Positions 23,790 to 52,648 of a stretch of DNA of 64,000 nt are shown here, in pieces; the stretch's first letter is position 1; each line of letters starts with the position of its first letter. The stretch comes from an uncultured delta proteobacterium (GTDB lineage: Bacteria; Desulfobacterota; Desulfobaccia; Desulfobaccales; 0-14-0-80-60-11). The notes under the pieces were generated by a model. That model was not told the origin of the DNA and searched no databases. It saw nothing but the letters and a program-made list of their open reading frames with translations. The position numbers were made by a program, and so were the translations under genes. The DNA lies in contig CAWETI010000002.1 of assembly GCA_963812015.1 (NCBI GenBank), forward strand, positions 416,001 to 480,000. The letters are read 5' to 3'.

Positions 23790-23930
23790 TTTTTTGCCCA
23801 GGTCAGGGCCGTTTGCAGCCCCAATTTCAAACGCTGACTTCCTCCCCTGACACTTACCCCTCATGCATGGGTCCGTACTCAAGTTGGCCCCGTTTGAGTG
23901 CCCTTTGTAGGCAGGCCCAAATTAAATTTG
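23790..23930 (+). repeat. Island repeat family, copy F
   Basis: Aligns by eye with 52506-52648 (TTTTTGCC.AGGT...CCGTTT..AGCCCC.ATTT..AACG...). Confidence 0.6.
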
Positions 23931-24470
23931 TAGACGCCAGGCTGAATAGCTCTTCTGCCTTGAAGGAGAAACCTGGTTCGGTGGGGTCCCAGGTCAATGT
24001 CGACACCTTTTCACGAAACACACTATCTGTTTCCCCTCAACCAACCGTATTTTCATATATCCATAACCCTCCCGATCGCATCTAAGCATATTCCATGGAG
24101 CCTTCAAGGCAATGACAGCGTTTACTGAAGCTTCCAGTGGCCAGGCATAAGGTAGAAGACTATCTTCTTATCCCTATCAGCTTTCGCAGGTGCATGAGGC
24201 CTTCAATAGCGGCTGCTGAAATAATTTTGTCGCTTGCTGCTCATCATAAGCAGCCCCGGGAGGGGTAATAGAGGATGTTTGGTGGTTTCCTGCCAGGATA
24301 CCAGGAATGTACCAGAGCTCGTTGTTTTCGCTCACGATGGGAGCCTTGCCTTGAGATGGAACCATAGAATACCTATCTTAATACATCAGCCCCAACAAGC
24401 TGCGTCAATGGCTATATTTTTATGCGATCCTTCAAGCTTCCAGAATCGAGTTGAGAAAGGATGGTGCGCT

Positions 24471-25466
24471 ATGAAAAAGGAGACCGACTTCGGGTTAATG
24501 ACCCGCCGGGATTTCGCGCGCGTCACGGCTGTGGCCGGCCTTAGCATCATGGCGGCGCCATATATCTCTCTGGGCGCTCCTCCCGCTGGCAAGCCGACCA
24601 CCCGGGTACTGGGGCGGACAGGCTTTGAGACCACAACCCTGGGCCTTGGCGGGCAGGCGTCACTGCAATGGACCCCAGAGGGAGAGAATCCCGAGCACAT
24701 CATCATCAAAGCCCTAAGCCTGGGCATCAATTACTTTGATACCTCTAACCTGTACGGGCCCAGCCAGTTGAATTATGGTAAGGCCTTTCGCACCTTGAAC
24801 CTCATTCCGGGCAACCCTGGGTACGATGAAGTCAAGCGGCGCTCTATTTATCTGGCGAGCAAAACCCGCCTGCGTTACGCGAAAGGTGAACCCACCACCG
24901 AGAGGCCTGTTAAAGACTTTACCAATGGGCTACCAGGCTCAAAAACCATCGATGACGTGAAGCGCACCCTGTCCCAAATCTTCGGAGATGGGCAAGGCAA
25001 CTATCCTCCCGGAGCCTACGCCGACCTATTTCAAATCCACAGCCTGCAAACCATCGATGATGTGGACGCAATTTATGAAGGGTTGGAGAACCCGGACCCC
25101 AAGGCGGAAAGGATTGGCGCATTGGCGGCACTCAGAGATTACCGGGACGGAACCAACCTCACCGGCTTGAACCCCAAGAATGAAAAATTAATCCGACACA
25201 TCGGCATCACGGGCCACCTCTCCTCCCCGGTGTTGATGGAATGCCTCCAGCGGGACGAGAAAAACCTGATTGACACCCTGCTCGTGGCCTTGAATGCCAA
25301 CGACCGCCGATACTTTAACCATCAATACAATGTGATTCCCGTGGCGGTGGCCAAGAATGCGGGCCTCATCGCCATGAAAGTCTTTGCGGACGGCGCCATG
25401 TACGGCAAAGGGAACTTCTTCTCCCGGGCTCCCGAACACGTGGTGCGTCTGACCTGCCCCCGATAG
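24471..25466 (+). pseudogene. Tat-signal aldo/keto reductase, 3'-truncated by IS3
   Basis: TRRDF twin-Arg motif; R.LGRTG, GINYFDTSNLYG, IHSL, IRHIGITGH, IAMKVF; the last codons (LTCPR*) come from the IS end. Confidence 0.8.
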
Positions 25467-25478
25467 TTGTACCAAGTT

Positions 25479-26380
25479 TTAAGTTAGAATTGGGGTCAAG
25501 TCAAGCCAGAGATCCTGGCGGAGCATAGCGTAGCCAGGATCTCTGGAAATCACCTGGATGGCCTCGGGTGCGGGTGGCCGATAACCCAAGGCGCTGTGAG
25601 GCCTTGCCGTATTGTATTCCCGCCGCCAGCGTTCTATAAGGATCTGGGCCTCCTTCAGGGTGGTGAAAATCTCCCCGTTGAGCAACTCATCCCGCAGTTT
25701 TCCATTGAAGCTCTCGTTGTAGCCATTCTCCCAGGGACTGCCAGGTTCAATGTAGAGCGTTTTGACTCCTACTCGGCTTAACCACTCCCGAACCGCCCTG
25801 GCCGTAAACTCCGGCCCGTTGTCTGATCGGATATAGTCTGGTGGGCGCCGTGACACAAACAGCTCTGTCAACCGATACAACACCGCATCTGCATCAAAAC
25901 GCCGGGACACCTCGATGGCCAGGCATTCCCTGGTGTACTCATCAATGATGGTGAGCATTCGGAAAGCTTTGCCATCGTGAGTCCGCGCCATCACGAAGTC
26001 ATAGGACCATACATGGTTCGGCCAGCAGGGCCGGAGACGAACACAAGATCCGTCGCTTAACCACAACCTGCCCCGCTTTGGCTGCTTCTGGGGCACCTTC
26101 AGCCCTTCCTGTCGCCAGATCCGTTCCATTCTTTTATGGTTCACCACCCAGCCGTCACTTCGCAGCAACGCCAGGATACGGCGATAGCCGTATCGCCCAT
26201 ACCTGCTGGCATGGCCAATGATGGCCGCAGTCAGCCCCACCTCGTCATCAGGCTCGGTGGCTTGGTAACGCTGGGTCGCACGCGGTTGCCCAATCACCCC
26301 GCAGACACGGCGTTCCGACACCGGCAGAGCCTTCCGGATATGCTCAATGCATTGCCGCCGACGGGTCGGGCTTAGAAGTT
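25479..26380 (-). CDS. IS3 OrfB DDE transposase (fused to OrfA by -1 frameshift)
   Basis: [42 protein letters not shown]; slippery GGGAAAC within 26378-26385. Confidence 0.9.
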
Positions 26381-26650
26381 TCCCCTTACCGCCTCCTGGA
26401 GGATCAGTTTATCCAGTGTGAGATCCGATACCGCCCGCCTCAGCCGGGTATTCTCTTGCTCCAGGGCCTTGAGGCGCTTGGCCTGCTCTATCTTTAAACC
26501 ACCATACTCCCGGCGCCAGCGATAGAAGGTCTGTTCGGCAATACCCAGGGTTCGGCAAACCTGGCCCACCGTCTCCCCCTGGGCCAAGGCCACCTCTGCT
26601 TCCCGCAACTTCCCAATGATCTGCTCCGGCGTATAACGCTTCCTGCTCAT
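26372..26650 (-). CDS. IS3 OrfA (HTH)
   Basis: [15 protein letters not shown]...[11 protein letters not shown]...[10 protein letters not shown]. Confidence 0.92.
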
Positions 26651-27272
26651 CTCCCTGCCTCCCTTCGATCCACTACTCTAACTTAACATGTGGATCAGTT
26701 TTTGGGGGGCAGGTCATTGGCTTGACCCGCCGTAAGATGCTTTGATTGTAATATGCCTGACCAGGGCCAATCTGGGAATAAGGACATACCCGGATTTTAG
26801 CCTTCAGATTAAAGGGGTCTTAATGGAGGGATGTCTGTATATACAGGTAGGACACCCGGAAGTACCAGCCATAACGGGGCCAGACGAGGTTGACAGGATC
26901 CTGGGAGGGGGGCCTAGAGGTGGTCACCAGTTCTACCGGAAGGAATCAGGCGATTGAGAGGTCGGCAAGTTTTCGATATCTATTCAATTCTTATACGAAA
27001 TATCTGGCCTGGATCCCCGAAGGAGCCCAGGCCAGACAAGAGAAACATGGAACGTATCAATTTGCACTATACTTCAAAACTGGTTGCTGTCAAGAAAATT
27101 AGGGGATGAGTAATTTCTTTGCCGGAAAAGAAGTTATCTCACCGTCGTACAGATTGATGATAGGCTCGTAGGGTGGACGATCTGGGTTCACCAAGGGGGA
27201 GGGGTGGGTGGCCAAGCGGCGCGGGGACTTTCCCCGGAAAAGCGAGGTTAAGCAATCGCCGATCTCAGCCTC

Positions 27273-27620
27273 CTACTCCCACCGTTCCTTGATAATTTCT
27301 GTATTCACGGTGTCAAACACCTCGGAATGATGCTCTATTTCAAACCACCGCATAAAGGTTTTATAGTCGCGTTTTGAGGGCCACCAATCAGGATCAGTAC
27401 AGAAGGCATCTAACTCTCTCTCAAAAATGTCCGCGTGTATCCTCTTGATAAATTTTTGGGCCTGGAGATCATTACCGAACTCGGGTAACAGAAGCACGGT
27501 GCAGTCGGTCTGGAGATCGGCCAGCGTAAAGAACTCCTCATTATCTGGCAGGGCATTGAGCCAGTCCAGAAAGGGTTGTTTGGGTTTTACCACCGCTATG
27601 GAGCGGTTGATGGTATCCAT
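27273..27620 (-). CDS. Conserved hypothetical protein (INRS.AVVKPKQPFLDW family)
   Basis: 115 aa from ATG 27620 after GAGGA; WPSKRDY.TF..WF.IE.HS motif. Confidence 0.65.
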   Translation of the reverse strand: MDTINRSIAVVKPKQPFLDWLNALPDNEEFFTLADLQTDCTVLLLPEFGNDLQAQKFIKRIHADIFERELDAFCTDPDWWPSKRDYKTFMRWFEIEHHSEVFDTVNTEIIKERWE

Positions 27621-27779
27621 TTGTTCATCCTCATGTCGGTGCGGTTCAGCGATGAATTGATTGGCGACTTCCAAAACCCTGGCACCCCGGCCTCAGCGAT
27701 TCGCCCAGGTCAAGCCTCTCGTGGCTGAGAGCCAAGCTATATGGATTAAGTTAATGGCGTACAGCCAAGCGTGAGCCTC

Positions 27780-27866
27780 GGCCTATGGGCATGATCCTAA
27801 CCCCGGCCAACGGCTTCGGCGTGGATGATGACCTGGTGCTTGGCATCGATGAGGGCCTGACTGCGA
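27780..27866 (-). pseudogene. IS1182-like transposase fragment
   Basis: Reads SQALIDAKHQVIIHAEAVGRG*DH; similarity recalled, not searched. Confidence 0.5.
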
Positions 27867-27990
27867 TGGCCAATACCGCTCTGGACTCGATTTCGTCAGA
27901 TGAGAAGGTTGTCCGGAACGTAGGATTTGCATCACTATCGCATCACCCAGGGCATGGTTGGCTAACAATGGCATCCCCGGAACTCGTCAA

Positions 27991-30334: not shown

Positions 30335-30336
30335 AA

Positions 30337-30507: not shown

Positions 30508-30649
30508 AGTATATAATTCCCTTTTTAAAGGGCATCATTACCGACCGATTCCTTGCGGTGAGCAATCGAACAATCACGGTATATCGACTTGCCCACTTGC
30601 CATTTATCCCACAGATAATCACCTACTCCAGTTTTCCCACATAAACTTG

Positions 30650-30905
30650 CCTCAAGCGACCCCAAAACGCCATCGAGAGGCATACCCTGTGGGTATCCCA
30701 GGGGTAGACGCTGATCGTTCAAATTTGGGGCTTGAGAGGGCACTTTACCAAGGGAATTTCAACTCTGGCGGCGCCGGTAGAGGTATGTAGTTTTTCCGCC
30801 TTCAAAACGTTTAGTGTGGGGGCATGGACGGTATCCTTCGTTTCGATATGGCGATCATATATATAACTCACTGGAATTTTAAAGAAGTTATGCTAGTGGC
30901 AAGCT
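30650..30905 (+). repeat. Island repeat family, copy E (core plus right arm)
   Basis: GTTTAGTGTGG at 30809-30819; 30840-30905 matches 48251-48316 (GATATGGCGATCATAT...CTGGAATTTT...TGCTAGTGGCAAGCT); left limit approximate. Confidence 0.75.
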
Positions 30906-30951
30906 CTAGAAACTTTTGTATCCTAAGTTTCCGCTTTCTCTTTGGCAAATC

Positions 30952-31015
30952 ATCTATGGCTTGACTTGACCCCCATCCTAACTTAAAAATTGGTAAATTT
31001 GCTGGGGGCAGGTCA
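30952..31015 (+). mobile_element. Solo right end of an IS3 element related to 25450-26716
   Basis: GGCTTGACTTGACCCC.AT.CTAACTTAAAA.TTGGTA.A....GGGGGCAGGTCA matches the reverse complement of about 25450-25510. Confidence 0.85.
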
Positions 31016-35921: not shown

Positions 35922-37124
35922 ATGAATCCGCACCGTAATGATTGGCTTCCCCGAATATTGGCTCTGGCTCCTGTGGTGGCGGCAGCCTGCTTATCTGCGT
36001 TTCTCCTAACGGGCTGCGGCGAACAGAAGGCGGCCGGGCCGGCCGCGCCCCCCGTGGAAATCGTGGAGGTGGTCGTCAAAGACGTGCCCATCGTGCGGGA
36101 GTGGGTGGGCACCACCGACGGCCTGGTGAACGCCAAAATCAACGCCCAGGTCCAGGGGTACCTCATCAAGCAAAATTATCAGGAAGGCTCTTTCGTCAAG
36201 AAGGGACAGGTCCTTTTTGAGATCGACCCCCGGCCCTTCCAGGCGGCCCTGGAGCAGGCCAAAGGCGAGTTGGCCAAGGACGAAGGGGTTCTCTACACGA
36301 ATAACGCCAATCTGGAAAAAATTCGGCCCCTGGCCGCAGTGAACGCGGTGAGCCGAAAAGACCTGGATGACGCCATCGGGCGGGAAGCTTCGGCCCGTGC
36401 CGCGGTGCTGGCCGCCAAGGCGGCGGTGCGCAAAACCGAAATCGATCTCAGCTTCACCAGGATCACCTCCCCCATCGACGGCATCGCCGGCATCTCTAAG
36501 GCCCAACTGGGAGATTTGGTGGGGAACTCGGGAAGTCCGGAGCTGACCACCGTATCCACGGTGGATCCCATTAAAGTGTTCATTCCCCTCAGCGAGCAGG
36601 AATATATGCGCTTTACCCAGACGGCAGAGGCCAGAGGGAAAACCGAGCCGGAAGGACCCACCCTTGAATTGGTCCTGGCCGACGGCAAGGTTTTTCCCTA
36701 TAAGGGCAAAGTTTACTTTGCTGACCGCCAGGTGGACGAGCGCACCGGCACCATCAAAGTGGCCACTCTCTTTCCCAATCCCGGCAATCTTCTGCGCCCC
36801 GGGCAGTTCGCCAAAATCCGGGCGTTGATCGAGACTCAGAAAGGGGCGTTGCTGGTCCCCCAGCGGGCAGTTAATGAGTTGCAGGGCAGGTTCCAGGTGG
36901 CCGTGGTCGGTCCGGACAACAAGGTGGATCTCCGCTGGGTCAAGGTGGGCGAACGCACCGGCTCCTTGTGGGTGATCGACGAGGGTCTTAAACCAGGGGA
37001 GCGCGTAATTGTGGAAGGCATCCAAAAGGTCAAAGCCGGTATGCCAGTCACCCCTAAGCCATTTCAGGAAGGACCGCCAGCCAGCACTGGGCCAACTCCA
37101 ACCGCTGAGAAACAGCCGAGGTAA
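35922..37124 (+). CDS. RND efflux periplasmic adaptor (AcrA-like lipoprotein)
   Basis: LLTGC lipobox, GQVLFEIDPRPFQA, LLRPGQF; start 35844 or 35922. Confidence 0.9.
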   Translation: MNPHRNDWLPRILALAPVVAAACLSAFLLTGCGEQKAAGPAAPPVEIVEVVVKDVPIVREWVGTTDGLVNAKINAQVQGYLIKQNYQEGSFVKKGQVLFEIDPRPFQAALEQAKGELAKDEGVLYTNNANLEKIRPLAAVNAVSRKDLDDAIGREASARAAVLAAKAAVRKTEIDLSFTRITSPIDGIAGISKAQLGDLVGNSGSPELTTVSTVDPIKVFIPLSEQEYMRFTQTAEARGKTEPEGPTLELVLADGKVFPYKGKVYFADRQVDERTGTIKVATLFPNPGNLLRPGQFAKIRALIETQKGALLVPQRAVNELQGRFQVAVVGPDNKVDLRWVKVGERTGSLWVIDEGLKPGERVIVEGIQKVKAGMPVTPKPFQEGPPASTGPTPTAEKQPR

Positions 37125-37130
37125 TGGGTC

Positions 37131-40100
37131 ATGGCGCGATTCTTCATCAACCGCCCCATCGTGGCCATCGTCATCGCCATCGTCATGGTGATCGTGGGGG
37201 TGGTGGCGCTCCTGGGCCTGCCCATTTCCCAATACCCTAACATCGTCCCGCCGGAAATCTTCATCAACACCACCTATGTGGGCGCCGACGCCCAGACGGT
37301 GGAGCAGTCCGTGGCCACGCCCATCGAGCAGGAGATGAGCGGCGTGGACAACATGAACTACATGTACTCTTTGAACGCCAACAATGGCGAGTTGAAGATG
37401 TACGTGAACTTTGATGTCAAAACCGACCCCAACATCGACCAGGTGCTGACCCAGATGCGGGAGAGCCAGGCCGAAGCCAAGTTGCCGGCGGACGTGCGCA
37501 ATTACGGCGTCACCGTCAAAAAGTCCACGGCCGCGCCCCTGATGGTGGTGGACCTCATTTCTCCAAAGGGCACCTATGACGCCACTTTCCTGGCCAATTA
37601 TGCCTATATCAACTTGAACGACCAGATGACCCGGGTGGCCGGCATCGCCAGTGTCACCGTCTTTGGGGCCGGCCAATATGCCATGCGCTTCTGGGTCAAG
37701 CCCGACCAATTGGCCAAGCTCAATATCACCATCCCGGAGATTGTCGACGCCATTCAGAAACAGAATACCGTGAACCCCTCCGGCCAGGTGGGGGCGGAGC
37801 CGGCCCCCAAAGGCCAGGAATACACCTACGCCATCCGCTCCCAGGGCCGGCTGGAGAGTCCGGAGGAGTTTGAAAAGATAGTCCTCCGGGCCAATCCCGA
37901 CGGGTCGCTGGTCCGCCTGAAAGACGTGGCCCGCATCGAACTGGGGTCCCAGACGTATGCCCTCCAAGGGCGTTTAAATGGCAAGGCTGGCGCGGTCCTG
38001 GCCCTCTACCAGCTCCCGGGCACCAATGCCATCCAGGCGGTGGATGGGGTAAAAAAACTCATGGAGCAGGCCAAGAAGTCCTTTCCGCCGGATATGGACT
38101 ACGTCATTGCCCTGGATACCACCCAGGCGGTGCGGGAAGGCTTAAAAGAGATCGTCAAAACCCTCTATGAAGCCCTCATTCTCGTCATCCTCGTGGTCTT
38201 CATCTTCCTCCAGGGCTGGCGGTCCACCCTCATCCCGGCGCTGGCAGTGCCCGTCTCCCTGGTGGGCACCTTCGCGTTTTTCCCCATTCTGGGCTTCTCC
38301 CTCAATACCATTGCCCTTATGGGGTTGGTCCTGGCCATCGGCATCGTGGTGGACGACGCCATCGTGGTGGTGGAGGCCGTGGAGCATCACATCGACCAGG
38401 GCATGACGCCCAAAGAGGCCACCCTGAAGGCCATGGAGGAGGTCACCGGGCCGGTGGTGGCCACGACCCTGTCTTTGGCCGCAGTCTTCATTCCCACCAT
38501 CTTCATTCCCGGCATCACCGGACGGCTTTATCAGCAGTTTGCCATCACCATCGCCGTCTCCGTCATCATTTCCTCCTTCAATGCCCTGACTCTGACCCCA
38601 GCCCTGTCGGCCCTGCTTCTCAAGCCTAAAAAGGAATCCCGGGGCCCGTTGAGCCGCTTCTACCGGTGGTTCAATGACGCCTTCGGCCGCACCACCAACG
38701 GCTATGTCAGCTGGTGCGGGGGTTTTATCAGGAAGGCGGGGATGAGCCTCCTCTTTCTGGCCCTGGTGGCGGGGCTCGCCGGCCTTTTGGGGGGGAGACT
38801 GCCCGGCGGTTTCCTCCCGGAAGAGGACCAGGGCTATATGTATGCCGGGGTTCAGTTGCCCGACGCCTCCTCCCTGCAACGCACCAGCGAAGTCTGCCGC
38901 CAGATCGAGGAAATCATGAACAACACCCCGGGGATAGAGTACGTCACCACCGTGGTGGGCATGAACATGCTAAGCGGCGTCACCAACACCTATAGCGGTT
39001 TTTTCTTTGTTACCCTGAAGCCTTGGCACGAACGAAACAAGCCGGAGGAGAAATACGAAGCCATCATGGCCAGCCTCAACCAGAGATTGAGTAAACTTCC
39101 CCAAGGGATTGCCTTTGCCTTCTCGCCCCCGGCCATCCCGGGCATCGGCACTGCCGGCGGGGTCACCTTCATCCTCGAGGATCGCGCCGGCAAAGATGTC
39201 AAGTTTCTCTGGGAGAACACCCAGAAGTTCCTGGCCGCCGCGCAGAAACGCCCGGAAGTCTCCAGGGTCACCACCACCTTCATCCCCACGGTGCCCCAAA
39301 TCTTCGTCAAAGTGGACCGGGATAAGGTGCTCAAGCAAGGGGTGGACATCGGCGAGGTCTACCGAGTCCTGCAGGCCTTCATGGGCGGCTACTTCGTCAA
39401 TTACTTCAACCGGTTCGGCCGCCAGTGGCAGGTATACGTCCAGGCCGAGGGGGAATACCGGGCCGCAGCCGAACAGCTAGGCCAGTTCTATGTGCGCAAC
39501 AAGAACGGCGACTCCGTGCCCTTGAGCGCCCTCACCAGTTTGGAACAGCGCTCCGGGCCGGAGTTTACTATGCGCTACAATCTCTACCGCTCCGTTCAGA
39601 TCAATGCCGTCACCGCCCCCGGGTACAGTTCCACCCAGGGGATGAAGGCCCTGGAGGAAGTCTTCAAAGAGACCATGCCCGCTGAAATGGGCTACGATTA
39701 TCTGGGTATGTCCTATCAGGAGAAGAAGGCCCAGGAAGGCGTGCCCGCCTGGGTCATCTTCGCCCTGTCGATATTGTTTGTATTCTTGATCCTGGCGGCC
39801 CAGTACGAAAGCTGGTCCCTCCCCTTCAGCGTGCTTTTGGGTACTCCAGTTGCGGTCTGTGGGGCCTTTTTGGCGATATTCCTGCGGGGTATGGAGCTTA
39901 ACCTCTATGCTCAGATCGGCTTGATCCTGCTCATAGGCCTGGCGGCGAAAAACGCCATCCTTATCGTCGAGTTCGCCAAGGTGGAATACGAGAAAGGCAA
40001 GGGTTTCGCCGATGCGGCCCTGGAGGGGGCGCGCCTCCGGCTCCGCCCCATTCTCATGACGAGCTTCGCCTTTATCCTGGGGTGTATACCTCTGGCCCTG

Positions 40101-40304
40101 GCCTCGGGCTCCGGGGCCATCGCCCGGAAAGTCATGGGCACCGCGGTGATTGGCGGCATGGCTGCGGCAACAGTCATCGCCATCTTCCTTATCCCGGTGA
40201 CCTTCTATGTGGTGGAAAAATTTTCTCACCGCAAAGGCAAGGAACCCCCCAAGCCTGGCGCTGCCCTGGCCGATCCCCCCGGCGATCAAGGAGAAAAGTC
40301 ATGA
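37131..40304 (+). CDS. HAE1-family RND permease (AcrB-like)
   Basis: [44 protein letters not shown]. Confidence 0.95.
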
Positions 40305-41752
40305 GGGCCTTCCTGTCCATCCTTCTGACCTTCTTGCTGCTTTACGGCTGCGCCGTCGGCCCGGACTACCAGCGGCCCGCATATCCGGTGCCGGAAAATT
40401 TCCGGGGCCAAGGGCCGGATATCCCCACGCAGCCGGCCGAAGTTTCCTTCGGGGATCTGAAGTGGTTTGAGGTTTTCAAGGACGAGAAGCTCCAGGAGCT
40501 GATCAAGATCGCCCTCCAGGAAAACTACGACGTGCAGATCGCGGCCCAGCGGGTCCTCCAGGCCCGGGAGCAGGTGACCATCCAGCGGTCTTTTCTCTTT
40601 CCCTCGGTGAATGCCAATTACCAGACGGAGACCGCCCGCACATCCACCCGGGGCTTCACGCCGTTCAATGTCACCCTGAGGGAGCGCATGGCCGGCATAG
40701 TCTTCGGCGACCTCTCCTGGGAGATCGACTTCTTCGGTCGCATCCGCCGGGCTACCGAAGCCGCCCGGGCCGAGTTTTTCGCCTCCGAAGAGAATCGCAA
40801 TTTCGTCATCCAGACTCTGGTGACCGACCTGGCCCGGGCCTATATCGAGCTCAGGGCTCTGGACCAGCAGCTTGAAATCAGCCACCGCACAGTCAAGACC
40901 CGTGAAGAGTCCCTTAAGCTGGTAAAAGCCCGCTTCGACTATGGTTGGGATTCCCAGACCCCCGTGCTTATGACGGAAAATCTGGTATATGGGGCCCGGG
41001 CTGTGGTTCCCGACCTGAAGCGGGCTATCGAACAGAAAGAAAACCAGATCAGCATTTTGCTGGGGCGGAACCCGGGACCCATCAGCCGGGGTAAATCTCT
41101 GCTGGAGCAGGATTTAACCGTTACCGTCCCTCCAGGACTGACTTCAACCCTTTTGGAGCGGCGCCCCGACATCCGCTTTGCCGAACAGACCCTGGTGGCG
41201 GCCAACGCCCGCATCGGCGAAGCAAAGGCGCTGCTCTTTCCTAATATCAGGATTACCGGGGCCTCCGGCTGGGAGTCTGCGGCTCTGAAAAGCCTGTTCA
41301 CCGGGCCGGCCAATTTCTGGGATATTGTGGCGCCGGGAATAACCCAGCCCATCTTTAATGCGGGTCGGCTCCGGGCCGGGGTCCGGACGGCGGAGGCCGT
41401 GACACAGGAAGCCCTTCTTACCTACAAAAAGTCCATTCAGCAAGCCTTCCAGGAAGTGTCCGACTCCCTCGTGGGGGTCCGTATGCTTAAGGAAGTGCGC
41501 CTCGAATCAGGGAAACAGGTTAAAGCCTTGAGCCAGCAAACCGATCTGGCCTATCAGCGATATTATGGGGGAGTAACTCCTTACCTGGAAGTTCTGGATT
41601 CAGACCGGCAGTTATTTGAGTCCGAGCTCAAGTTAACCCAGGACCGCGCCAACGAGCTCCTGGCCGTCATCGCTCTCTACCGGGCCCTGGGAGGCGGCTG
41701 GCAAACTCAGGATGACCCTGGCACATCGCAGCGCTTAACTATATCCAAGTAA
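40301..41752 (+). CDS. NodT/OprM-family outer membrane efflux lipoprotein
   Basis: [11 protein letters not shown] lipobox, [21 protein letters not shown]. Confidence 0.92.
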
Positions 41753-41837
41753 AAGAAGTAAACTGTGCCTTAGGAAAATTTTGGCATTTTTCCCCGGATG
41801 TCATTCTCTGCCCTAAATCAACTACCCATCATATTGA

Positions 41838-42120
41838 TGGAAGTGCTTTGATATCCATATCATATCTCCACACGAACTATCTCTGCAGCTGAAGTCACCC
41901 AGGTAAGAGGCCCTGAAACGACCCCAAAAGGCTTAAAGAACCCCTACCCTTACTCTGACCATTAGTCGGCTGGCTTGCGTTGAAATTTGGCTCGATAAAA
42001 GGACCGTACGTTGCTGTTTTTGGCCATCGCCGCCATCAACCTGAACGCCTCCTGGCCTTATACCGTCAGAAGCTAGAAAAAATAATGCAGCCAACCTAAA
42101 GGGGACCAGGTTTAGTGTGG
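41838..42120 (+). repeat. Island repeat family, copy A
   Basis: First about 125 bp match 52377-52499; 41908-42120 match 48018-48231, ending in a 32-bp identity. Confidence 0.85.
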
Positions 42121-45017: not shown

Positions 45018-45154
45018 ATAATGGGGTTATGGATAAAGGAAGGTGGTCAGATGCTCTTTCAATAAACCTTTTTCGAGCCTTCTCCGATTATGTATATCCT
45101 TAAATAGCGTTGATAGTTTTCTAAATGGGGCTTAGGCTTCAAGGACGTTCCCCC

Positions 45155-45287
45155 GCTGTCGGCTGGCGATCATTGGAAATTGGGCCGATCCAAGGGCCAT
45201 ACGTTGGTGTTTTAGTCATTGCCACCATCAACTTGAACGCCGACTGGCCTTGTACCGTCAGATACCAGAAACAATCAAAGCCGACCG
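45155..45287 (+). repeat. Island repeat family, copy C (partial)
   Basis: GTCGGCTGGCGATC.TT.GAAATTGG...GCC.CCATCAAC.TGAACGCC...ACCGTCAGA...AGAA...AGCC.ACC shared with A and B. Confidence 0.8.
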
Positions 45288-45318: not shown

Positions 45319-47490
45319 CTACAAACTCAACCTATTCCGCAGATACGTATAGCGCTTTCTCGTCTTGTCATTCCCGATCCCTATGGCCAAGGCCCTTTTG
45401 GAACCCACCATGACCACCAATTTCTTTCCCCTGGTAACCGCCGTATAAATCAGATTGCGCTGCAGGAGCACATAATGTTGGGTCAGAATAGGAATAACCA
45501 CGGCCGGGTATTCGGAGCCCTGGGATTTGTGGATGGAGATGGCGTAGGCCAGGACAACCTCATCCAAGTCGGGGTAATCATATGGCACTTTTTTGCCATC
45601 GAAGTCGATGTTCACTTCCTGGGCCTCAAGGTCAATCCTGCCGATCCTGCCGAGATCACCGTTAAAGACTTCCTTCTCATAATCGTTCTGGATCTGCATG
45701 ACCTTGTCGTTGATCCGGAAATTCTTGCCACCCCGGGATAGACTGTCTGGTCCCGGGTTAAGGGCATTTTGCAGTTCCAGATTGAGGTTTTCCGCCCCAA
45801 CCATCCCTTTGTGCATGGGGGTGAGCACCTGGATGTCGTTAATGGGATCAAACCCAAATCGCTTTGGAAAACGTTCCTTGACCAGCTCCAATATAATGCC
45901 GAGGACTTTTTCAGATTCTTCCTGCTCGATAAAATAAAAATCTGCCAGTTTATGGCCGGAAGGTTTAAATGCAGGCATCAGACCCTGGTTGATCTTGTGG
46001 GCATTAACGATGATCAAGCTCTCCCTGGCTTGGCGGAAGATCTCATTTAATTCCATGACTGGCACGGCCCCGGAGGCAATGATGTCATGGAGTACATTGC
46101 CGGCACCAACCGAGGGCAGCTGATTGACATCACCCACCAGGATAAAGGTAGCCCTGGGTGGAATGGCTTTCAGGAGGTGATGCATCAGGATGGTGTCGAT
46201 CATGGAGGCTTCATCTACAATCAGGAGATCACACCTCAAAGGGGTCTGATCGTTTTTCTGAAAGCCTCCTTTCTGGATACTGTATTCCAGCAAGCGGTGG
46301 ATGGCCTTGGCCTCGTAACCGGTAGCCTCGCTCATCCGTTTCGCGGCTCTGCCCGTAGGAGCAGCCAGCAATAATTTGACCCCACTTTTGACAAAGATTT
46401 TCAGAATGGCATTGACAATGGTCGTTTTCCCGGTGCCAGGCCCGCCGGTGATGACCAAGACTTTATCCGTAACAGCCCGCCTTACTGCGTCTACCTGCTT
46501 GGATGCCAAGGTGATATCCAACTGTTGTTGTACCCATTTGAGTGCCTTGTCGGGGTCGATGGGCCTGATGGACTTTGGGGCGTTAATCAAGGCCTTCAAC
46601 CGGGCGGCGATGTTGGTTTCGCTTAAATGGAATTTTGCCAGGTAAACCGCTTGGTAATCAGCTTTAGATTCCTGCCCCTGAAGGTCATCGATCACTATCT
46701 TTTTCTCTGCATTTAAAGAGGTTAAAGCCCTTGACAGGACCTCCTGGTCAGCCTCCAGGATCTCCTGGCACTTATTGACGAGGGCTTGGAAAGGATAATA
46801 GACATGGCCTTCATCGGCAAGTTGATGGAAAACATAGAGGATGCCTGCTTCCGCTCGGAGTTCTGAGTCTTTGGCAAACCCCAACTTTTCGGCAATTCGG
46901 TCAGCGGTGAGGAAGCCGATGCCAAAAATATCCGTGGCCAGGCGGTAAGGATTCTCTTGAACAACCTCGATGGACTCGTTGCCGTAAGTCTTGAAAATCT
47001 TGGTGGCATAAGCGGAACTGACCCCATGGGACTGGAGGAAGATCATTACCTGGCGGATCTCCTTCTGATCGGCCCAGGCTTTTTTGATCATCTCAATCCG
47101 TTTTCTGCCAATGCCCTCGATTTCAGTGAGCTTTTCGACCTCCAGTTCTATGACGTCAAGGGTCTCTGTCTCGAATTTCTTGACGATCCGCTTGGCCATG
47201 ACCGGCCCGATGCCCTTGATAAGCCCGGACCCCAGATATTTTTCAATGCCAGCCACTGAGGCCGGCACCAGGGATTTGTAATGGACGACCTTGAATTGCT
47301 CACCAAATTTTGGATGATTAGCCCACTCCCCCTGCATCTTTAAAATTTCGCCAGGCATTGGGGCCATGAAGTTCCCCACCACGGTCACCAGATCCCGGCG
47401 GCCATAAACCTTGATCTTGGCGATAGTATAGCCGTTCTCTTCATTGGTATAGGTGATCCTTTCGATTTGGCCCTGGAGGTCGGCGAGCAT
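45319..47490 (-). CDS. recD2: ATP-dependent RecD-like (RecD2) SF1B helicase
   Basis: YLGSGLIKGIG HhH, ENPYRL, GGPGTGKTT, DEASM, GDVNQLPSVGAG, HKSQGSEY. Confidence 0.95.
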   Translation of the reverse strand: MLADLQGQIERITYTNEENGYTIAKIKVYGRRDLVTVVGNFMAPMPGEILKMQGEWANHPKFGEQFKVVHYKSLVPASVAGIEKYLGSGLIKGIGPVMAKRIVKKFETETLDVIELEVEKLTEIEGIGRKRIEMIKKAWADQKEIRQVMIFLQSHGVSSAYATKIFKTYGNESIEVVQENPYRLATDIFGIGFLTADRIAEKLGFAKDSELRAEAGILYVFHQLADEGHVYYPFQALVNKCQEILEADQEVLSRALTSLNAEKKIVIDDLQGQESKADYQAVYLAKFHLSETNIAARLKALINAPKSIRPIDPDKALKWVQQQLDITLASKQVDAVRRAVTDKVLVITGGPGTGKTTIVNAILKIFVKSGVKLLLAAPTGRAAKRMSEATGYEAKAIHRLLEYSIQKGGFQKNDQTPLRCDLLIVDEASMIDTILMHHLLKAIPPRATFILVGDVNQLPSVGAGNVLHDIIASGAVPVMELNEIFRQARESLIIVNAHKINQGLMPAFKPSGHKLADFYFIEQEESEKVLGIILELVKERFPKRFGFDPINDIQVLTPMHKGMVGAENLNLELQNALNPGPDSLSRGGKNFRINDKVMQIQNDYEKEVFNGDLGRIGRIDLEAQEVNIDFDGKKVPYDYPDLDEVVLAYAISIHKSQGSEYPAVVIPILTQHYVLLQRNLIYTAVTRGKKLVVMVGSKRALAIGIGNDKTRKRYTYLRNRLSL

Positions 47491-47687
47491 CTTTTCAAAC
47501 CTGTATGTTTGACTGTTATGGGAATACCTATACCATAAAATAGCCTGAGGCAGATGCCGCGATCTGCCCAATTTAAGATAGGTCATTAGGCTCAGAGGAG
47601 TTATCTTTTCCTGCTCAATCTGTTATATTCCCAGGCGGTCACCACTTAGCTCTAGCCAAACTATTCATGCCGGAAGAGAGGTAAATC

Positions 47688-47975
47688 ATGGCGCTCACCA
47701 AAGATAAATTAGTAATCCGTCTGCAGATTCAACTGGGCTTAACCAAGCCGGAATCTCGTCAGATGGTGGAACGGCTTTTCGGCTTAATAAAAGACACCCT
47801 CACCAATGGAGAAGATTTGCTCGTCAGCGGTTTTGGGAAATTCGTGGTCAGACAGAAATATGAGCGTCGGGGGCGAAACCCTCAAACGAAGGAGAGTCTG
47901 ATCCTGCCAGCGAGGAAGGTTCTGGTGTTTAAGACATCTGGAGTTTTGCGGGAGAGGATCAACGAAGGTTCTTAA
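47688..47975 (+). CDS. ihfA: Integration host factor alpha-like (IHF/HU family)
   Basis: MALTK, SGFGKF, RRGRNPQT, VLVFK.S..LR. Confidence 0.88.
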   Translation: MALTKDKLVIRLQIQLGLTKPESRQMVERLFGLIKDTLTNGEDLLVSGFGKFVVRQKYERRGRNPQTKESLILPARKVLVFKTSGVLRERINEGS

Positions 47976-48017
47976 ATCTCCATAATTTTCCCTGAAGTGG
48001 TGCCCCGTAGATTGCTA

Positions 48018-48316
48018 AAAGGCCCTGAAACGACTCCCAAAGGCATCAAGAACCCTCAACCCTACCCTGACCATGAGTCGGCGGGCGATCGTTAAAATTT
48101 AGGCCAAAAAAAGGACCGTACCTGGTGTTTTTGGCCACTGCCGCCATCAACCTGAACGCCGCCTATCCCTAAACCGTCAGAAACCAGAATAAATATTGAA
48201 GCCAACCTAAAGGGGACCAGGTTTAGTGTGGAACTATGAGCGCATGACCCGTTTTGATATGGCGATCATATCTTCATCTCTCTGGAATTTTTGAGAAGCT
48301 TTGCTAGTGGCAAGCT
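48018..48316 (+). repeat. Island repeat family, copy B (left arm, core and right arm)
   Basis: Shares its left arm with A and C, AGCCAACCTAAAGGGGACCAGGTTTAGTGTGG (48200-48231) with A, and its right arm with E. Confidence 0.85.
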
Positions 48317-48656: not shown

Positions 48657-49124
48657 ATGAAAAGATTATTGTTTATAGCTTTTATGTTTTTATTATTAAA
48701 TATATTGCCTCCTTTCCAACTCGCAGCTACGGAATTTTCAAGCGGCGGGACCATTTTTGTCCCTGTGTATCGGGGGTTCTATCAATTTTACGGTTCTACA
48801 AGGGATTCTTATGCCCTCACTGGTACCGCCTTTTTCTATAATATCGATGCCAAACAGGCAATTGAAGTTCTTTCCATCGATTTTTATGACTCGTCGGGTA
48901 AACTGCTTAAAAAATTGCTCGATGGCTCCCTCTTGATCAGACCCCAAAATAGTAGGGAGATTACTATCGAACCCAGGACTGAGCCAGAGGAATGCGGAGC
49001 CCACCTCATAGTTCGCTGGAAATCAGACCAACCTGCTAATACCCCCATGGTAGAAGTGTTAATGGTGGGACAAGTGTTGAATCGCGGCGTTTCTTTTTTA
49101 ACCCGAGGCTACGAGCTCAAATAA
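48657..49124 (+). CDS. DUF3124-family exported protein
   Basis: G.TIFVPVY, DFYDSSGKLL, GA..IVRWK, P.VE.LM.G, GVSF; AAGGAG RBS. Confidence 0.75.
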   Translation: MKRLLFIAFMFLLLNILPPFQLAATEFSSGGTIFVPVYRGFYQFYGSTRDSYALTGTAFFYNIDAKQAIEVLSIDFYDSSGKLLKKLLDGSLLIRPQNSREITIEPRTEPEECGAHLIVRWKSDQPANTPMVEVLMVGQVLNRGVSFLTRGYELK

Positions 49125-49270
49125 TAATTGGGGTAGTGATTTCGAATGCTAAAAGGGAAATAATTTAATCTTATAAAGCTGTTAAGAATTCAACCTATCC
49201 TTACCATGGGTTCCTTGGAGCGTAGGATCTCGCGGCGGGCCTGTTTGGCATCCTCGTTCTAACTTAGGGC

Positions 49271-49430
49271 CTATCCCTGGCTGCGGCGCAGCTCCTCAGC
49301 GCGCCCTTGCATGGCTTCGGTGGCCTTGAAGCCGCGCCGGCGCTCAAGGGAAAGGGAGTTTACCATCTTGGCGAAGCCGGAGAGGAAAACCAGAATGCTG
49401 GGCAACTTGGCCTCGGATATGACCGGACTT
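49271..49430 (-). pseudogene. Fragment resembling the end of a PocR-like sensory domain
   Basis: PVISEAKLPSILVFLSGFAKMVNSLSLE; resemblance only. Confidence 0.3.
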
Positions 49431-49683
49431 CCTGAATGGCGCCCAGGTAATCGGTCTTTTTGCCCTGATAGCTCCCTGCCATTCCCGCTGGTAACCTGGG
49501 GTTCATCTATCACCGACATCTGAAATCATCCTCTTCACAGATGTCCACGCCAGATAAGAAGATCATATCTGCAGTTTTCTCTGGCTCGGGAATAAGTGAA
49601 GGTCCTGGCAAGGTATATTCACTCGGCAAACAAGGCAGGGCCATGGAGGACTCTGCCTTGTTTGCCTTCGGAGTTAAGAATGG

Positions 49684-49764
49684 TTAACCTTTCCTGAACT
49701 TCCTCCAGCCAGCCAATCCCAGGAGGCCGGAGCCGAAAAGGACGAATCCGGGGGGTAACAGCAC
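49684..49764 (-). pseudogene. Orphan PEP-CTERM/VPLPA-CTERM-type sorting tail
   Basis: VLLPPGFVLFGSGLLGLAGWRKFRKG*: Pro motif, TM helix and basic tail, with no convincing upstream protein body. Confidence 0.6.
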
Positions 49765-50100
49765 GATCTCGGAGGTTGACTCGGATAGGATCATGACGGA
49801 GCCACTCCACGCGGCGTGCTCGTCCGGCGTGAAGGCCGAGGCCACTGGGGCGACCGGTAACGGCTGTGGTGGGATCAAGGCCCATCCGCGATTGGGCTTT
49901 TAGGGCAAATCCGGGTCCTTAGAGGATTGGAGGTAGAATTGCTTTTCTTCTTCGGCTTGAATTTTTAAATTATCTAAACACCCTTATGTTGAAATAATAA
50001 AAAAGATATCTAATATTAGGAAAGACAATACTTTCTATTATCTCAGCTTTTGTGCCATTTTGCATCCCTGAAGCACCGATCTGAAAAGGAGGGCATGAAG

Positions 50101-52317
50101 ATGCGGTCTGGAAAGCAGTTGTTCCTCGGGTTTACTCTGCTTCTTCTTATACCCCTTTGGTTCACATTCGTCAGCTTAGCCATAACTGATCAACAATATG
50201 AAATCATGGGATTGATTGCGGTTTTAGAAAATCCGAACTCTTCCTATAAAGATAGGGAAGCCGTTATAGACAGATTGCAGGATATTGGCCAACCGGCCGT
50301 TCCTGCCCTCATCAAGGTTCTGAAGAATAAAGATACTAATATCGATCATAGGAGGGCAGCTGCTGGTGCCTTGGGACATATAGGTCCGGCGGCCAAAGAA
50401 GGGATTCCCACACTCATCACAGCCCTGTGGGATAGGGACTCGGGGCTTCGATATAATGCTGCCCTTGCCCTGGGACGAATGGGTCCGGCGGCAAAAGAGG
50501 CAATTCCGGCATTAGTAGCGGCCTTCAAAAATGATTATATAAAGGAACGCGAGGATGTTGCCACTGATCTCTTACAAATAGTGGAATTGGAGAAAAATCT
50601 GAGCAGCGCCGCCTTGAAGGAGAAAATCTCCTTGCTGGAGAATCTCCGAGAAACCATTTTCAAAGACTTCAATGAATCCCCAGAATCCGATGATTACAAA
50701 CAAAAAGAATTGGTGGACAAATTAAACCTGATGCTCAGGACAGTGAAGGCAGAATATGAAATAAAGCCTTCTGTCTTGCGCGAATTGTTTGACGAATACA
50801 AGAGTAAAAGCTGGGCCCGGGCCATGGCCGGTTATGTGGCGTTACTTGTGGTAGTGCTTCCCACATGGCTCCTGCTCTTTTGGCTTAATCCCCTATGGTT
50901 ATATCGGATCAATGAATTGTTATCTCCTCTTAGTATCAAGATTAAGCCTCTTGACCGGCCACTGGGACTAAACCAAATATTAATTCTTTCACCGTTCTAT
51001 TACTGCAACCGGATCCTGGATGCTTGGGTGCAGGACCATCTGAGCAATACGAAGGCAAACTTTGCCGCACTGAAAACCGTCCGGGACAGAGCCGTGCACG
51101 TGCCCGTCCCTGTCACCCTAAACGGCCACATAATGGCCCTGCCATCCCCTAAGGATTTCTGTGAGGTCTTCCGAAAAATTCCGTTCTGTATGCTTATTTG
51201 GGGTGAGGGTGGCTCGGGAAAGACCAGCCTGGCCTGCCAATTGGCCCACTGGGCCTTGGCTGGGGAACCAGAATCAGCCTTAGCCAGACACCCCATGCTT
51301 CCCGTCTTGTTAGAATACGATTTGGGCCAGCATACCCCGCTGGAAGCCATAAGCAAACAGATTGAAATAATGACCGGAGGCGAGAAAATCGCACCATCTT
51401 TGATCGATCACCTGCTCAGGCGGCAGCGCCTCCTGGTGTTCGTGGACCATTATTCGGAAATGAACTTGGAAACTCGGGAGCGCTTACAACCAGGATACGA
51501 TCCCCAACTCCCACTGCACGCTATGATTGTCACTTCACGACAAAAGGAAGAGTTTCGGGGGGTAGTTACCGATACACTCAATCCTTTGCGGATCCGAGGT
51601 AACCGTCTTTCCTCTTTCCTGGAGGCTTATCTAACCCAGCTCGGCAAACGGGAACTCTATGATGACACAGAATTTTTTGCCGCCTGCGGCCGCTTGACCG
51701 AGATGGTGGGCGATCGTAACCTCACCGTCTTGCTGGCCCGGATGTTTGCCGATCAGATGATTGCCACCAAGGAAGATCCTATATTTGAGGGCCTCCCAAA
51801 AAACATCCCCGACCTAATTCTCATTTACCTGAATTGGATAAACCGTCACGAATCTGACAAAAATCCGGGAAATAGGACGGTTCAGCGTATCGCCAAGGCC
51901 ATCTCCTGGGTGAGTCTTGAGCCTACCTTCCGGCCCACAGATGCCAACCTAGCTGCCATTCACACCGCCCTGGCTGATGAACCGAACCTGGACCAGAAAT
52001 TGGACTACCTCAGCCGCGACCTGGGGATTTTCCAGATTGTCGGTCCGTCTGAAGACAAGGTCCGAGTTTCCCTAGACCCCGTGGCCGAGTATTTGGCTGG
52101 CCTATGCCTGTTGGAATTGTATGGCGCCGAGGAGGCACAGTGGCGGGCGTTTCTGGAGGCGGCTGATAACAAGGAAGGCGCCCCCAAATCTATAGAAGGT
52201 TTTCTGCTTGCCTTGCGGGATTGCTGTTTGGCCAAAGGCGAAGACTACAATGTTCCCGGATTTGTGGAGCATGAACTGGCTCAAAAGGCAGGCATTCTTG
52301 ATAGCAAAACCGGCTAA
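50101..52317 (+). CDS. HEAT-repeat + TM + NACHT/STAND-like P-loop NTPase
   Basis: Signal/TM; HEAT repeats (ALG.IGPAAKE.IP.L); central TM; Walker A GEGGSGKTS; Walker B-like LLVFVD; IVTSR. Confidence 0.75.
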   Translation: MRSGKQLFLGFTLLLLIPLWFTFVSLAITDQQYEIMGLIAVLENPNSSYKDREAVIDRLQDIGQPAVPALIKVLKNKDTNIDHRRAAAGALGHIGPAAKEGIPTLITALWDRDSGLRYNAALALGRMGPAAKEAIPALVAAFKNDYIKEREDVATDLLQIVELEKNLSSAALKEKISLLENLRETIFKDFNESPESDDYKQKELVDKLNLMLRTVKAEYEIKPSVLRELFDEYKSKSWARAMAGYVALLVVVLPTWLLLFWLNPLWLYRINELLSPLSIKIKPLDRPLGLNQILILSPFYYCNRILDAWVQDHLSNTKANFAALKTVRDRAVHVPVPVTLNGHIMALPSPKDFCEVFRKIPFCMLIWGEGGSGKTSLACQLAHWALAGEPESALARHPMLPVLLEYDLGQHTPLEAISKQIEIMTGGEKIAPSLIDHLLRRQRLLVFVDHYSEMNLETRERLQPGYDPQLPLHAMIVTSRQKEEFRGVVTDTLNPLRIRGNRLSSFLEAYLTQLGKRELYDDTEFFAACGRLTEMVGDRNLTVLLARMFADQMIATKEDPIFEGLPKNIPDLILIYLNWINRHESDKNPGNRTVQRIAKAISWVSLEPTFRPTDANLAAIHTALADEPNLDQKLDYLSRDLGIFQIVGPSEDKVRVSLDPVAEYLAGLCLLELYGAEEAQWRAFLEAADNKEGAPKSIEGFLLALRDCCLAKGEDYNVPGFVEHELAQKAGILDSKTG

Positions 52318-52376
52318 TTTCGACTAAGTCCCATAGCGAAGCGAAGTACTGCTATAAATCAACTACTCTCAAATCC

Positions 52377-52648
52377 ATGAAAGTGCTTTGATATCTGTAT
52401 GATATCTAAACATTGAACTATTTCAACTGCCGGAGTTCCATTTCTAAATGACAGTGAAACAACCCTCAAAGTCTTGAAGACCCCCCTTACTCCGACCATC
52501 TGGTAGTTTTTGCCAAGGTATGAACCGTTTTTAGCCCCGATTTTGAACGATAAGTCCCCAGCCCTGCTCTTACCATTCACCCGCCCATGAGCTCCCAAAT
52601 TAGGCCAATTTGAAGGCCCATACGTGGACAAATCTGAAATAAAATTTC
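52377..52648 (+). repeat. Island repeat family, copy D
   Basis: AAGTGCTTTGATATC...GAACTAT...TGAAAC.ACCC...CCTTACTC.GACCAT shared with A; 3' half shared with F. Confidence 0.8.

Follow-up and report, generated by a model that had tools for sequence, protein, structure and literature searches.

The repeated blocks of the window

What placed six related blocks, all on the same strand, between unrelated gene modules in this DNA? A sequence-only reading of the window (the whole stretch of 64,000 nucleotides analysed here) had named them A to F, and suggested that they could be recombination or capture sites of an undescribed cassette-accretion system, or the ends of a serially integrating element. 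By self-blastn of the window, we observed that the blocks are indeed related, with matches between A and B (217 bp, 83%, E 2e-59), A and C (119 bp, 78%, E 1e-19), C and B (114 bp, 76%), E and B (67 bp, 85%), and A and D (156 bp, 72%, E 9e-14), all of them co-oriented. The tiled overlaps that had been described were recovered in this way, but the one between D and F is weak, with no match at E ≤ 0.01 and E 0.087 in another search. A profile built from the copies of relatives alone recognises block F at E 3e-5 and block C at E 1e-24.

The blocks are non-coding, as had been proposed: the open reading frames (ORFs) over F, E and D have no Pfam match, and Rfam gave 0 matches in positions 22000-64000. 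Six proteins were scanned against NCBIfam. Six-frame translations of the blocks were compared with 7081 sequences (6961 ORFs of the genome and 120 recombinase homologs) and gave one unannotated ORF overlapping C, one weak antisense match and nothing else; they provided no source for the blocks as coding remnants. A structured RNA was also rejected, the A-type body (11 sequences) reaching consensus energies of -8.8 and -7.7 kcal/mol, with double changes in 3 and 0 of 18 pairs and 0 matches in Rfam. The flanking genes and cargo modules are, according to Pfam, those named previously, and the first 22 kb are free of copies, the repeat-family models having no significant match in positions 1-22000 of the window (one at E 0.26). 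The limits first given for F, E, A, C and D proved too short, and a seventh piece had been missed (Table 1). The tRNA-Pro(TGG) duplicate listed there is island context, outside the repeat family; the tRNA-Pro(TGG) gene itself (G000:C2:482851-482927) and an integrase gene (C2:481459-482760) lie just past the end of the window.

Table 1. Features of the island, in positions of the window
Feature	Position	Strand	Description
tRNA-Pro(TGG) 3'-end duplicate	22769..22802	-	34 identical bases; left boundary of the ~44-kb island
Block F, extended	23789..24192	+	internal body of a long derivative; neither end kept
Block E	30623..30903	+	remaining body and intact right end; core TGGCAAG 30897-30903
Leader, 112 bp	30904..31015	+	begins at the crossover, ends in an IS3-type end
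Block A, left end	41804..41866	+	arm NTAN-CTGC, then palindrome 41850-41866
Block A, body	41867..42120	+	broken off ahead of the right end
Block C	45101..45287	+	body fragment abutting the recD2 3' end; same in G011 and G014
Cargo recD2 (minus) and ihfA (plus)	45319..47975	.	Pfam and relatives
Block B	48005..48314	+	body and intact right end; core TGGCAAG 48308-48314, then strong arm match
Seventh piece, missed earlier	49456..49612	+	miniature of the ~230-bp class without left end; right end 49552-49612 intact
Block D	52345..52812 (about)	+	left end 52345-52406 and D-type body

Four of the blocks carry ends of a recombinase element

A left end opens blocks A and D, a right end (TGGCAAG) closes B and E, and C and F consist of internal body. 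At A and D the canonical left-end model has no match, the left end of the long subfamily being too divergent, and the assignment rests on motifs in common, on a complete element of the relative G008 and on positional identity. The six blocks are real and co-oriented, but do not represent six recombination sites of equal standing: the description as recombination or capture sites fits only the terminal ~60 bp of A and D (left end) and of B and E (right end). The motifs quoted earlier as common to the blocks (CGTT.AAATTT.GG and others) are located in the internal body, where the breaks fall at arbitrary points.

A linked recombinase exists, carried by an autonomous element of ~1.05 kb that is composed of a left end, one gene for a Xer-like tyrosine recombinase on the opposite strand, and a right end. 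In the source genome (G000) it lies at G000:C2:302473-303531, and its gene, the sole copy of the recombinase gene found there, contains one internal stop codon. Matches of at least 850 bp to the element are present in 9 of 40 relatives. When 39 near-full-length recombinase loci were examined among 54 fetched, the models recognised a right end in 22, a left end in 14 and both in 11. The recombinase, of ~270 residues, belongs to a family of 4877 proteins at E ≤ 1e-30, whose named members are mostly labelled XerD or integrase; the residues R, K, H, R, H and Y are invariant in 9/9 aligned proteins.

The elements fall into size classes of ~110, ~230, ~530 and ~1050 bp. A complete long derivative of 527 bp in G008 matches A, B, D and E; like the ~110- and ~230-bp classes, it has both termini in common with the autonomous element and lacks the gene, and is in this sense non-autonomous. 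The blocks of the window are very probably fragments of such long (~0.5 kb) non-autonomous derivatives of the 1.05-kb element. Compared by blastn with the autonomous copy of the source genome, the six blocks gave no significant match (best E 0.14), and the bodies of the long derivatives appear to be foreign DNA that does not come from the interior of the autonomous element. The homology of block D extends to 52910 and into a backbone containing ssb in G004, G011 and G014; since the D body runs into this separate backbone, it may be captured DNA. Searches of plasmid and phage collections with A, D and the recombinase were negative, and we found no published description of the 1.05-kb element in the literature searched, mostly freely accessible journals and with ISfinder excluded.

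Structure and distribution of the ends

In the source genome, the right end gave 74 matches at E ≤ 1e-3 (~75 in all) and 0 in the reversed genome; with copies also elsewhere in the genome, the repeats are not restricted to the island. TGGCAAG is near-invariant at right ends and is followed by NTA. The exact right-end pattern was found in 26 of 41 genomes (control 0), and the seventh piece holds the third intact right end of the window. The 7-mers ahead of 32 left ends are variable, with at most 4/7 matches to TGGCAAG. The 11 nt past the right end fit the left-end arm at offset +1 only and, with a score matrix derived from left ends of the same genome, exceed a score of 5 at 14 of 75 sites (control 0.2%); with this score, A reaches only 2.6 and D 14.3. 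The symmetry of the arms fits a 7-bp spacer. Target duplication is absent in 45 of 47 complete elements and amounts to 2 bp in the other 2; for these 47 elements, neither an empty donor site nor an empty target site could be found.

Neighbouring sites are co-oriented in 42 of 47 cases, with a permutation mean of 28.2 (0/20000). Replication-strand bias was rejected as the cause, since 51/75 sites but only 15/25 clusters lie on the G-rich strand and a within-segment permutation leaves the 42/47 unexplained.

Other enzymes and sites were considered and rejected. A 206-aa recombinase, encoded beside a terminase-like gene and heading two arrays, is present in 2/41 genomes, whereas the sites are present in 26/41. 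The integron integrase IntI has no TIGR02249 match over the cut-off in the genome, the enzyme of the element reaching 52 bits against a cut-off of 265; in the one attC-type pairing examined, the base of CATA[N]C is T in 64/75 whatever base follows the crossover, and shows no covariation. For host dif/XerCD sites (28 bp, 6-bp spacer), a scan of the genome with textbook dif arms gave no convincing dif, and a 7-bp spacer fits here.

Alleles and cargo in relatives

Among 30 RND-gene loci fetched, the 50-bp flank is kept in 9. Besides the source genome, 3 of these 9 have an element starting from the same junction and 1 has a decayed left end; four arm-only alleles each run into unrelated DNA, with no clean empty site. 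The junction of block A is occupied in three relatives by an allelic series: a long derivative, a 224-bp miniature (G071) and the full recombinase element (G029). Blocks F and E belong to a single body, which is uninterrupted in a relative and split here by 6.4 kb of cargo. Block F matches G015 over 394 bp at 72%, with a right end 59 bp further on in G015; block E matches G014 (L111) over 292 bp at 78%, and the last 77 bp of block F are found 10 bp ahead of this block E homolog.

The cargo between repeats differs between relatives. A 3-kb block between A and C is missing in two of them, and G011 has a deleted form of the recD2/ihfA cargo within a complete unit of ~1.26 kb running from left end to right end. 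In 82 other genomes, neither the three-gene redox block nor the DUF3124 and HEAT-NTPase units could be found as a unit. The linked recombinase and an inter-repeat cargo that varies among relatives support the reading as ends of a serially integrating element.

Cassettes, relics or other signals

Downstream modules stand behind unrelated upstream sequences in 7 of 8 families, and the partner changes exactly after TGGCAAG; because of this precise switch, a site-specific re-assortment of modules is likely. The ends mark exact swap points of gene blocks, and these swaps may represent a mode of gene collection not described before. An integron-like accretion is plausible but unproven: the right end would be an attI-like double-stranded site, modules would span from crossover to crossover, the recombinase would excise them and re-insert them at other right ends, and the 1-kb element would be the cassette carrying the enzyme. 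This would extend our main explanation without excluding it, and we consider its chance somewhat short of even. Consistent with such cassettes, 27 of the 62 right-end pairs with a common downstream sequence begin to share it at +1 to +5 in both members, all 5 genome copies of the 112-bp leader follow a right end, a module is present twice in a single array of G022 (1.5 kb, 97%), and a duplicated unit of 817/798 bp has crossovers at its two borders and a right end ahead of both copies. However, repeated insertion of variant elements before a favoured repeated target would produce an identical pattern, a second genomic copy with exact borders on either side exists for only 1 of the 42 inter-site segments, the borders of the window cargo at F/E and A/C fall within bodies and not at crossovers, and no circle junction was seen in the assembled contigs of four runs (for X1, the best holder, among the matches listed). 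The A/B/C/D joints in X2, X6 and X7 have short sides, are probably mosaic copies from other organisms and were unused as evidence. The exact flank exchange suggests the cassette-accretion system first proposed, but does not demonstrate it.

Borders inside bodies are also what would be left by ordinary MITE relics, inserted independently in island DNA under low selection, with cargo arriving by other routes and rearrangement through host homologous recombination. Miniatures do dominate (of 33 left ends, 11 are in ~110-bp and 11 in ~230-bp miniatures), cargo genes occur singly elsewhere, and the ~75 right ends are spread genome-wide as for MITEs, but they are clustered and co-oriented, not scattered. 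The co-orientation far above the permutation control, the flank exchange exact to the nucleotide and a cargo-bearing unit (1223 bp, 90.7%) that begins with a left end at each of two unrelated loci make such relics rather unlikely as an explanation. It is highly improbable that the conserved 60-mer functions as a sigma-54 promoter preceded by an activator palindrome: TGGCAAG is like a -24 box and, in agreement with the sigma-54 consensus spacing, the commonest bases at +7 and +8 are G and C, but they are found at only 34/75 and 41/75 sites, several sites point at the 3' ends of convergent genes, and TGGCAAG lies at the end of the recombinase element, with the gene pointing away from this motif. 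Ends of the IS91 rolling-circle type, with one-ended capture of adjoining DNA, were considered since the target tetranucleotide of IS91 is CAAG, which ends every site, and one Y2 transposase fragment adjoins a recombinase gene. The single Y2 HUH transposase gene of the genome is truncated, outside the element and unlinked (the nearest sites being 3.6 and 6 kb away), whereas the ends go together with the single tyrosine recombinase of the 1.05-kb element and the sequence bias continues past CAAG as an arm; this reading is largely refuted and barely credible.

A possible mechanism

For the serially integrating element, the recombinase would bind NTAN-C-N-GC arms flanking the 7-bp spacer, aided by inner GATA boxes. 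A right end would be joined to a left end, or to the arm behind another right end, giving a circle that would insert by exchange at the 3' edge of the spacer; TGGCAAG would stay with the right end, and the spacer of the target would land at the left end. Existing junctions look like good targets, and copies may therefore pile up in one orientation in islands. Any DNA between two ends could travel, and later insertion, deletion and homologous recombination within the long bodies would produce the tiled pattern.

We also put forward, tentatively and well aware that it may prove wrong, that Desulfobacterota possess a cassette system without hairpins, operated by one small Xer-like recombinase from a 1-kb mobile unit. 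In such a system every module would terminate in the double-stranded right end, which would also be the favoured target of the next one; islands would expand and be reshuffled as arrays of single- or multi-gene modules in one orientation, and the long derivatives would be gene-capture shells. If the mechanism holds, a ~270-residue recombinase without accessory gene would circularise and insert itself and multi-kb cargo at short degenerate targets. It would represent the SE/Tn554-type route of transposition, which is poorly understood, in a minimal form, and how such elements keep their spacer could then be examined directly with a single protein and two ends of 60 bp. Much of the turnover of accessory genes in this lineage would also be accounted for, and the system could serve as a compact integration tool.

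Comparison with known systems

In attI, arms surround a 7-bp spacer, exchange takes place after the last G and accessory boxes lie upstream. The sites described here share this layout and, as in integrons, are co-oriented between unrelated cargo; unlike in integrons, the cargo is in both orientations and often multi-gene, and the enzyme lies inside the mobile unit. Insertion sequences yield MITEs and cargo-carrying (MIC-type) derivatives. The present element resembles them in its size of ~1 kb, its single enzyme gene with a slippery A tract and its many internally deleted copies, some with passenger genes, but the enzyme is a Xer-like tyrosine recombinase and not DDE, HUH or DEDD, and the element differs in its lack of target duplication, its strong co-orientation and its exact flank exchange. 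The pdif/dif modules of Acinetobacter, as far as the accessible accounts describe them, are also shuffled accessory modules bounded by Xer-type sites; they depend on host XerC/XerD and reside on plasmids, whereas here the sites are chromosomal and longer, have a 7-bp spacer and are served by a recombinase of their own.

RIT, BIM and other simple-YR elements similarly place simple Xer-related recombinases on non-conjugative mobile elements; according to the available parts of PMC3414803 and PMC8138268, RITs carry three recombinases and BIMs a second conserved gene, in contrast to the single gene found here, and these parts describe no single-gene IS-sized element from Desulfobacterota. Strand-biased circularizing integrative elements (SE) and Tn554-related transposons share further features with the present element: the accessible part of PMC10214605 reports transposition by tyrosine recombinases, imperfect inverted termini, no target duplication, and the element spacer at the right junction with the target spacer at the left, as we observed with the fixed TGGCAAG, the variable left 7-mers and 45/47 elements without duplication. 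According to the same part, SE requires four proteins and Tn554 three, with two recombinases, and SE has a median length of 15.7 kb and 1-2 copies per replicon in Gammaproteobacteria; the element described here has one recombinase gene in ~1050 bp and ~75 ends per genome in Desulfobacterota. Its right-hand spacer is an invariant 7-mer, whereas SE has a variable footprint of 6 bp there, copied from the left flank of its previous site (PMC10214605, accessible part).

Origin of the six blocks

The sequence-only reading had described six related non-coding blocks (A to F) on one strand of the window, and self-blastn found all six, co-oriented. Block A matched B (217 bp, 83%, E 2e-59), C (119 bp, 78%) and D (156 bp, 72%), and B matched C (114 bp, 76%) and E (67 bp, 85%). 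The overlap proposed between D and F was weak by blastn (E 0.087), but F was recovered by a profile built only from relatives' copies (E 3e-5); with such a profile block C scored E 1e-24. The genes listed as flanking the blocks agree with those we found there, in an island of ~44 kb. Rfam gave 0 matches over 22000-64000 of the window.

In a relative's genome (G008) we observed a gene-less 527-bp element, complete with both its ends; A, B, D and E all match it. From these matches, A and D start with a divergent left end, and B and E close with a right end; C and F are body (the interior) alone. The bodies did not match the autonomous copy of the source genome, plasmid or phage collections, or, as coding remnants would, any credible ORF, and no RNA fold was supported for the A-type body. 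Since bodies are rarer than ends (7 A-type and 4 D-type matches at E<=0.01 with relatives-only profiles) and 4 and 2 of these, respectively, lie in the window, the local enrichment first noticed there is real. We consider it likely that the blocks derive from a mobile element carrying one tyrosine recombinase gene. By eye, an ATCGTT(C/G/A)AAATTT-type motif is forward in A, B, C and E, reversed in D and F, and has a similar counterpart ahead of a terminase-like gene (see table); reverse HMM matches were weak.

The autonomous element

A recombinase is indeed linked to these repeats: at G000:C2:302473, in the source genome, one gene starts just inside a right-end site, and has an internal stop. 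The element is ~1050 bp long, and nine of 40 relatives match it over at least 850 bp. Its far end opens with NTAN-CTGCTAT and bears a mirror set of boxes. Among 54 loci fetched from species genomes, 39 near-full-length recombinase loci were analysed, and the models recognised right ends at 22 of them and left ends at 14, with the two together at 11; by eye, T(G/T)GCAAG lies about equally far off in several more distant loci. Because these loci were named Desulfobaccales, Syntrophobacteraceae, Desulfobacterales and Desulfobulbaceae, we infer that the element's host is Desulfobacterota. Some copies (L151-L154, L161, L174) lack the standard left end and have in common an extended left part, which reaches up to about 1.3 kb in two loci; these are larger autonomous variants.

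The recombinase falls under every NCBIfam cut-off (best XerA, 116 versus 220). Its homologs number 4877 at E<=1e-30, and with 50% clustering there are 359 representatives. Residues R125, K148, H207, R210, H234 and Y243, which we take to be catalytic, are conserved in all nine aligned recombinases. After about codon 18 the gene contains an A tract; of 11 distinct copies, nine have 8 A, one has 7 A (in frame) and one has 9 A. Since more distant homologs keep the N-terminus before the tract in frame, expression may be controlled by slippage.

Right ends across the genome

A genome search with the family to which the terminal ~60 bp of B and E belong yielded 74 copies at E<=1e-3 (78 at E<=0.1), and none when the genome was reversed; we worked with the 75 whose terminal 7-mer has no more than one mismatch. 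TGGCAAG is near-invariant and followed by NTA, with a palindrome, GATAT-N7-ATATC, ~50 bp upstream. Of 41 genomes, 26 contain an exact pattern, against 0 in the control. Copies scattered in the manner of a MITE were found in part: right ends are genome-wide, yet clustered (27 gaps of 5 kb or less versus 6.7 expected) and co-oriented, 42 of 47 neighbours within 20 kb sharing orientation against 28.2 with strands permuted within skew segments (0 of 20000 permutations reached the observed value). Of the source genome's 33 left ends, 10 are solo or other; for the rest, the paired right end lies at ~110 bp (11 cases), ~230 bp (11 cases) or ~1058 bp (one case).

Features of the window and of the source genome (G000)
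Feature	Location	Remark
tRNA-Pro 3'-end duplicate	22769-22802	34 bp; one island boundary
tRNA-Pro and integrase	just past window end	other island boundary
IS3-family element	25449-26717	three more copies, 100% over about 1267 bp
End closing the leader after E	30952-31015	matches the IS3-family element, opposite orientation
recD2 and ihfA of island	45319-47975	recD2 48% identical to second copy (C2:508936-511074); ihfA also a second copy
Third intact right end	49552-49612	overlooked earlier
Backbone (non-coding stretch, ssb, two small unknown ORFs)	52500-55410	75-86% in G004, G011, G014
Type I restriction-modification operon	55419-62081	inside island; then a group II intron RT just beyond window end
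ATCGTT(C/G/A)AAATTT-type motif	48080, 30715, 52530, 23820; L008:4890-4915
3.8-kb unit (L008, L009)	C3:996792-1000613, C3:453858-457666	two copies, 94%
Group II intron with RT gene (L004)	C3:740024-741870	strand opposite to right end; in palindrome of long-subfamily right end
Broken IS91-like unit (L021)	C2:1181072-1182582	frameshifted integron-integrase-like recombinase, then truncated Y2 transposase
Two other dispersed repeat families	C3:978470-978610, C3:979741-979920	~135 and ~180 bp long, in dozens of copies; no apparent relation to the recombinase element

The 3.8-kb unit encodes a 162-aa ORF, a 206-aa catalytic-only tyrosine recombinase, a 180-aa ORF and a 510-aa ATPase, which looks terminase-like from its sequence (0 Pfam and 0 NCBIfam matches); on the right it is bounded by a shortened right end, which heads an array.

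Comparison with relatives

The RND outer-membrane gene before A was matched in 42 of 83 genomes, and the 50 bp preceding A are retained at 9 of 30 fetched loci; because the relatives are akin to each other and mostly fragmented assemblies, such counts are not independent. At this junction we observed a long left end as in A (G014), a 224-bp miniature (G071), a 1049-bp autonomous element (G029), a decayed left end (G067), and, in G004, G005, G045 and G080, the short arm only, followed by unrelated DNA.

Cargo between repeats varies among relatives, a point that the sequence-only reading had named as a check. G014 is collinear with window 35974-42096 at 90% and then passes directly into recD2, so that the three-gene redox block, which in the window separates A from C, is an indel. 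Extended F and E lie 10 bp apart in G014, with 6.4 kb of cargo between them in the window, and in G015 the F body continues into a right end. In G011 a ~1.26-kb unit, with an unrelated flank in front of it, comprises an A-type left end, body, deleted recD2, ihfA and right end, and matches G014 over 1223 bp at 90.7% from the left end onwards. The D body may be captured island DNA, since it continues into the ssb-containing backbone in G004, G011 and G014. Two genomes of another genus have a gene of the recD2/ihfA region at 95% identity; a 1.9-kb internal deletion there is common to G011 and G014.

Proposed mode of insertion and possible module exchange

The 11 nt past right ends resemble the left-end arm at offset +1 only (14 of 75 score above 5, against 0.2% in the control). 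When reverse-complemented, the 11 nt in front of TGGCAAG give their highest score with no shift. These scores would fit a pair of arms flanking a 7-bp spacer, with the 3' edge of the spacer as the point of exchange. Variable 7-mers before left ends (n=32) and the absence of target duplication in 45 of 47 complete elements suggest that the element would keep its own spacer at the right and leave the target's at the left. A filled junction would itself be a good target, which predicts co-oriented pile-up. No empty site was found for the 47 elements, and no circle among contigs.

The reading had also proposed cassette capture. In our comparison of 129 distinct right ends (source genome and fetched loci), 62 pairs share downstream sequence, from +1 to +5 in 27 of them; upstream partners are unrelated in 7 of 8 downstream-sharing families, and the leader after E has five copies, each of them behind a right end. 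One gene-bearing unit (817/798 bp) is duplicated with both borders at crossovers, the only case among 42 segments. Integron-like cassette accretion is a tentative reading, which we hold to be somewhat doubtful: successive insertions ahead of a preferred target that recurs could look like cassette exchange. In 82 other genomes we found none of the window's redox, DUF3124 and HEAT-NTPase modules as a unit. For the window cargo, the F/E and A/C borders fall within bodies, a position that speaks for insertion or homologous recombination and not for the recombinase. Flavodoxin and recD2 homologs also adjoin right ends in other genera (L212, L213, L214, L231, L232).

Relation to known systems

Our literature search, with most subscription journals outside its coverage, returned no description of the recombinase element, and it is not among the RIT, BIM, Tn554-like and other simple-recombinase elements in the parts of PMC8138268 and PMC3414803 that cover them. 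The array layout resembles that of integrons, but no IntI match in the source genome passed the cut-off and the one position tested has no attC-type covariation. SEs and Tn554, in the relevant part of PMC10214605, keep the element's spacer at the right and leave the target's at the left junction. The working mode proposed here would be alike, with MITE- and MIC-like derivatives; the element differs from SE/Tn554 members in having one gene and 1 kb. To this picture the window adds a long subfamily, a single site with an allelic series, bodies that are split, and units that carry cargo.
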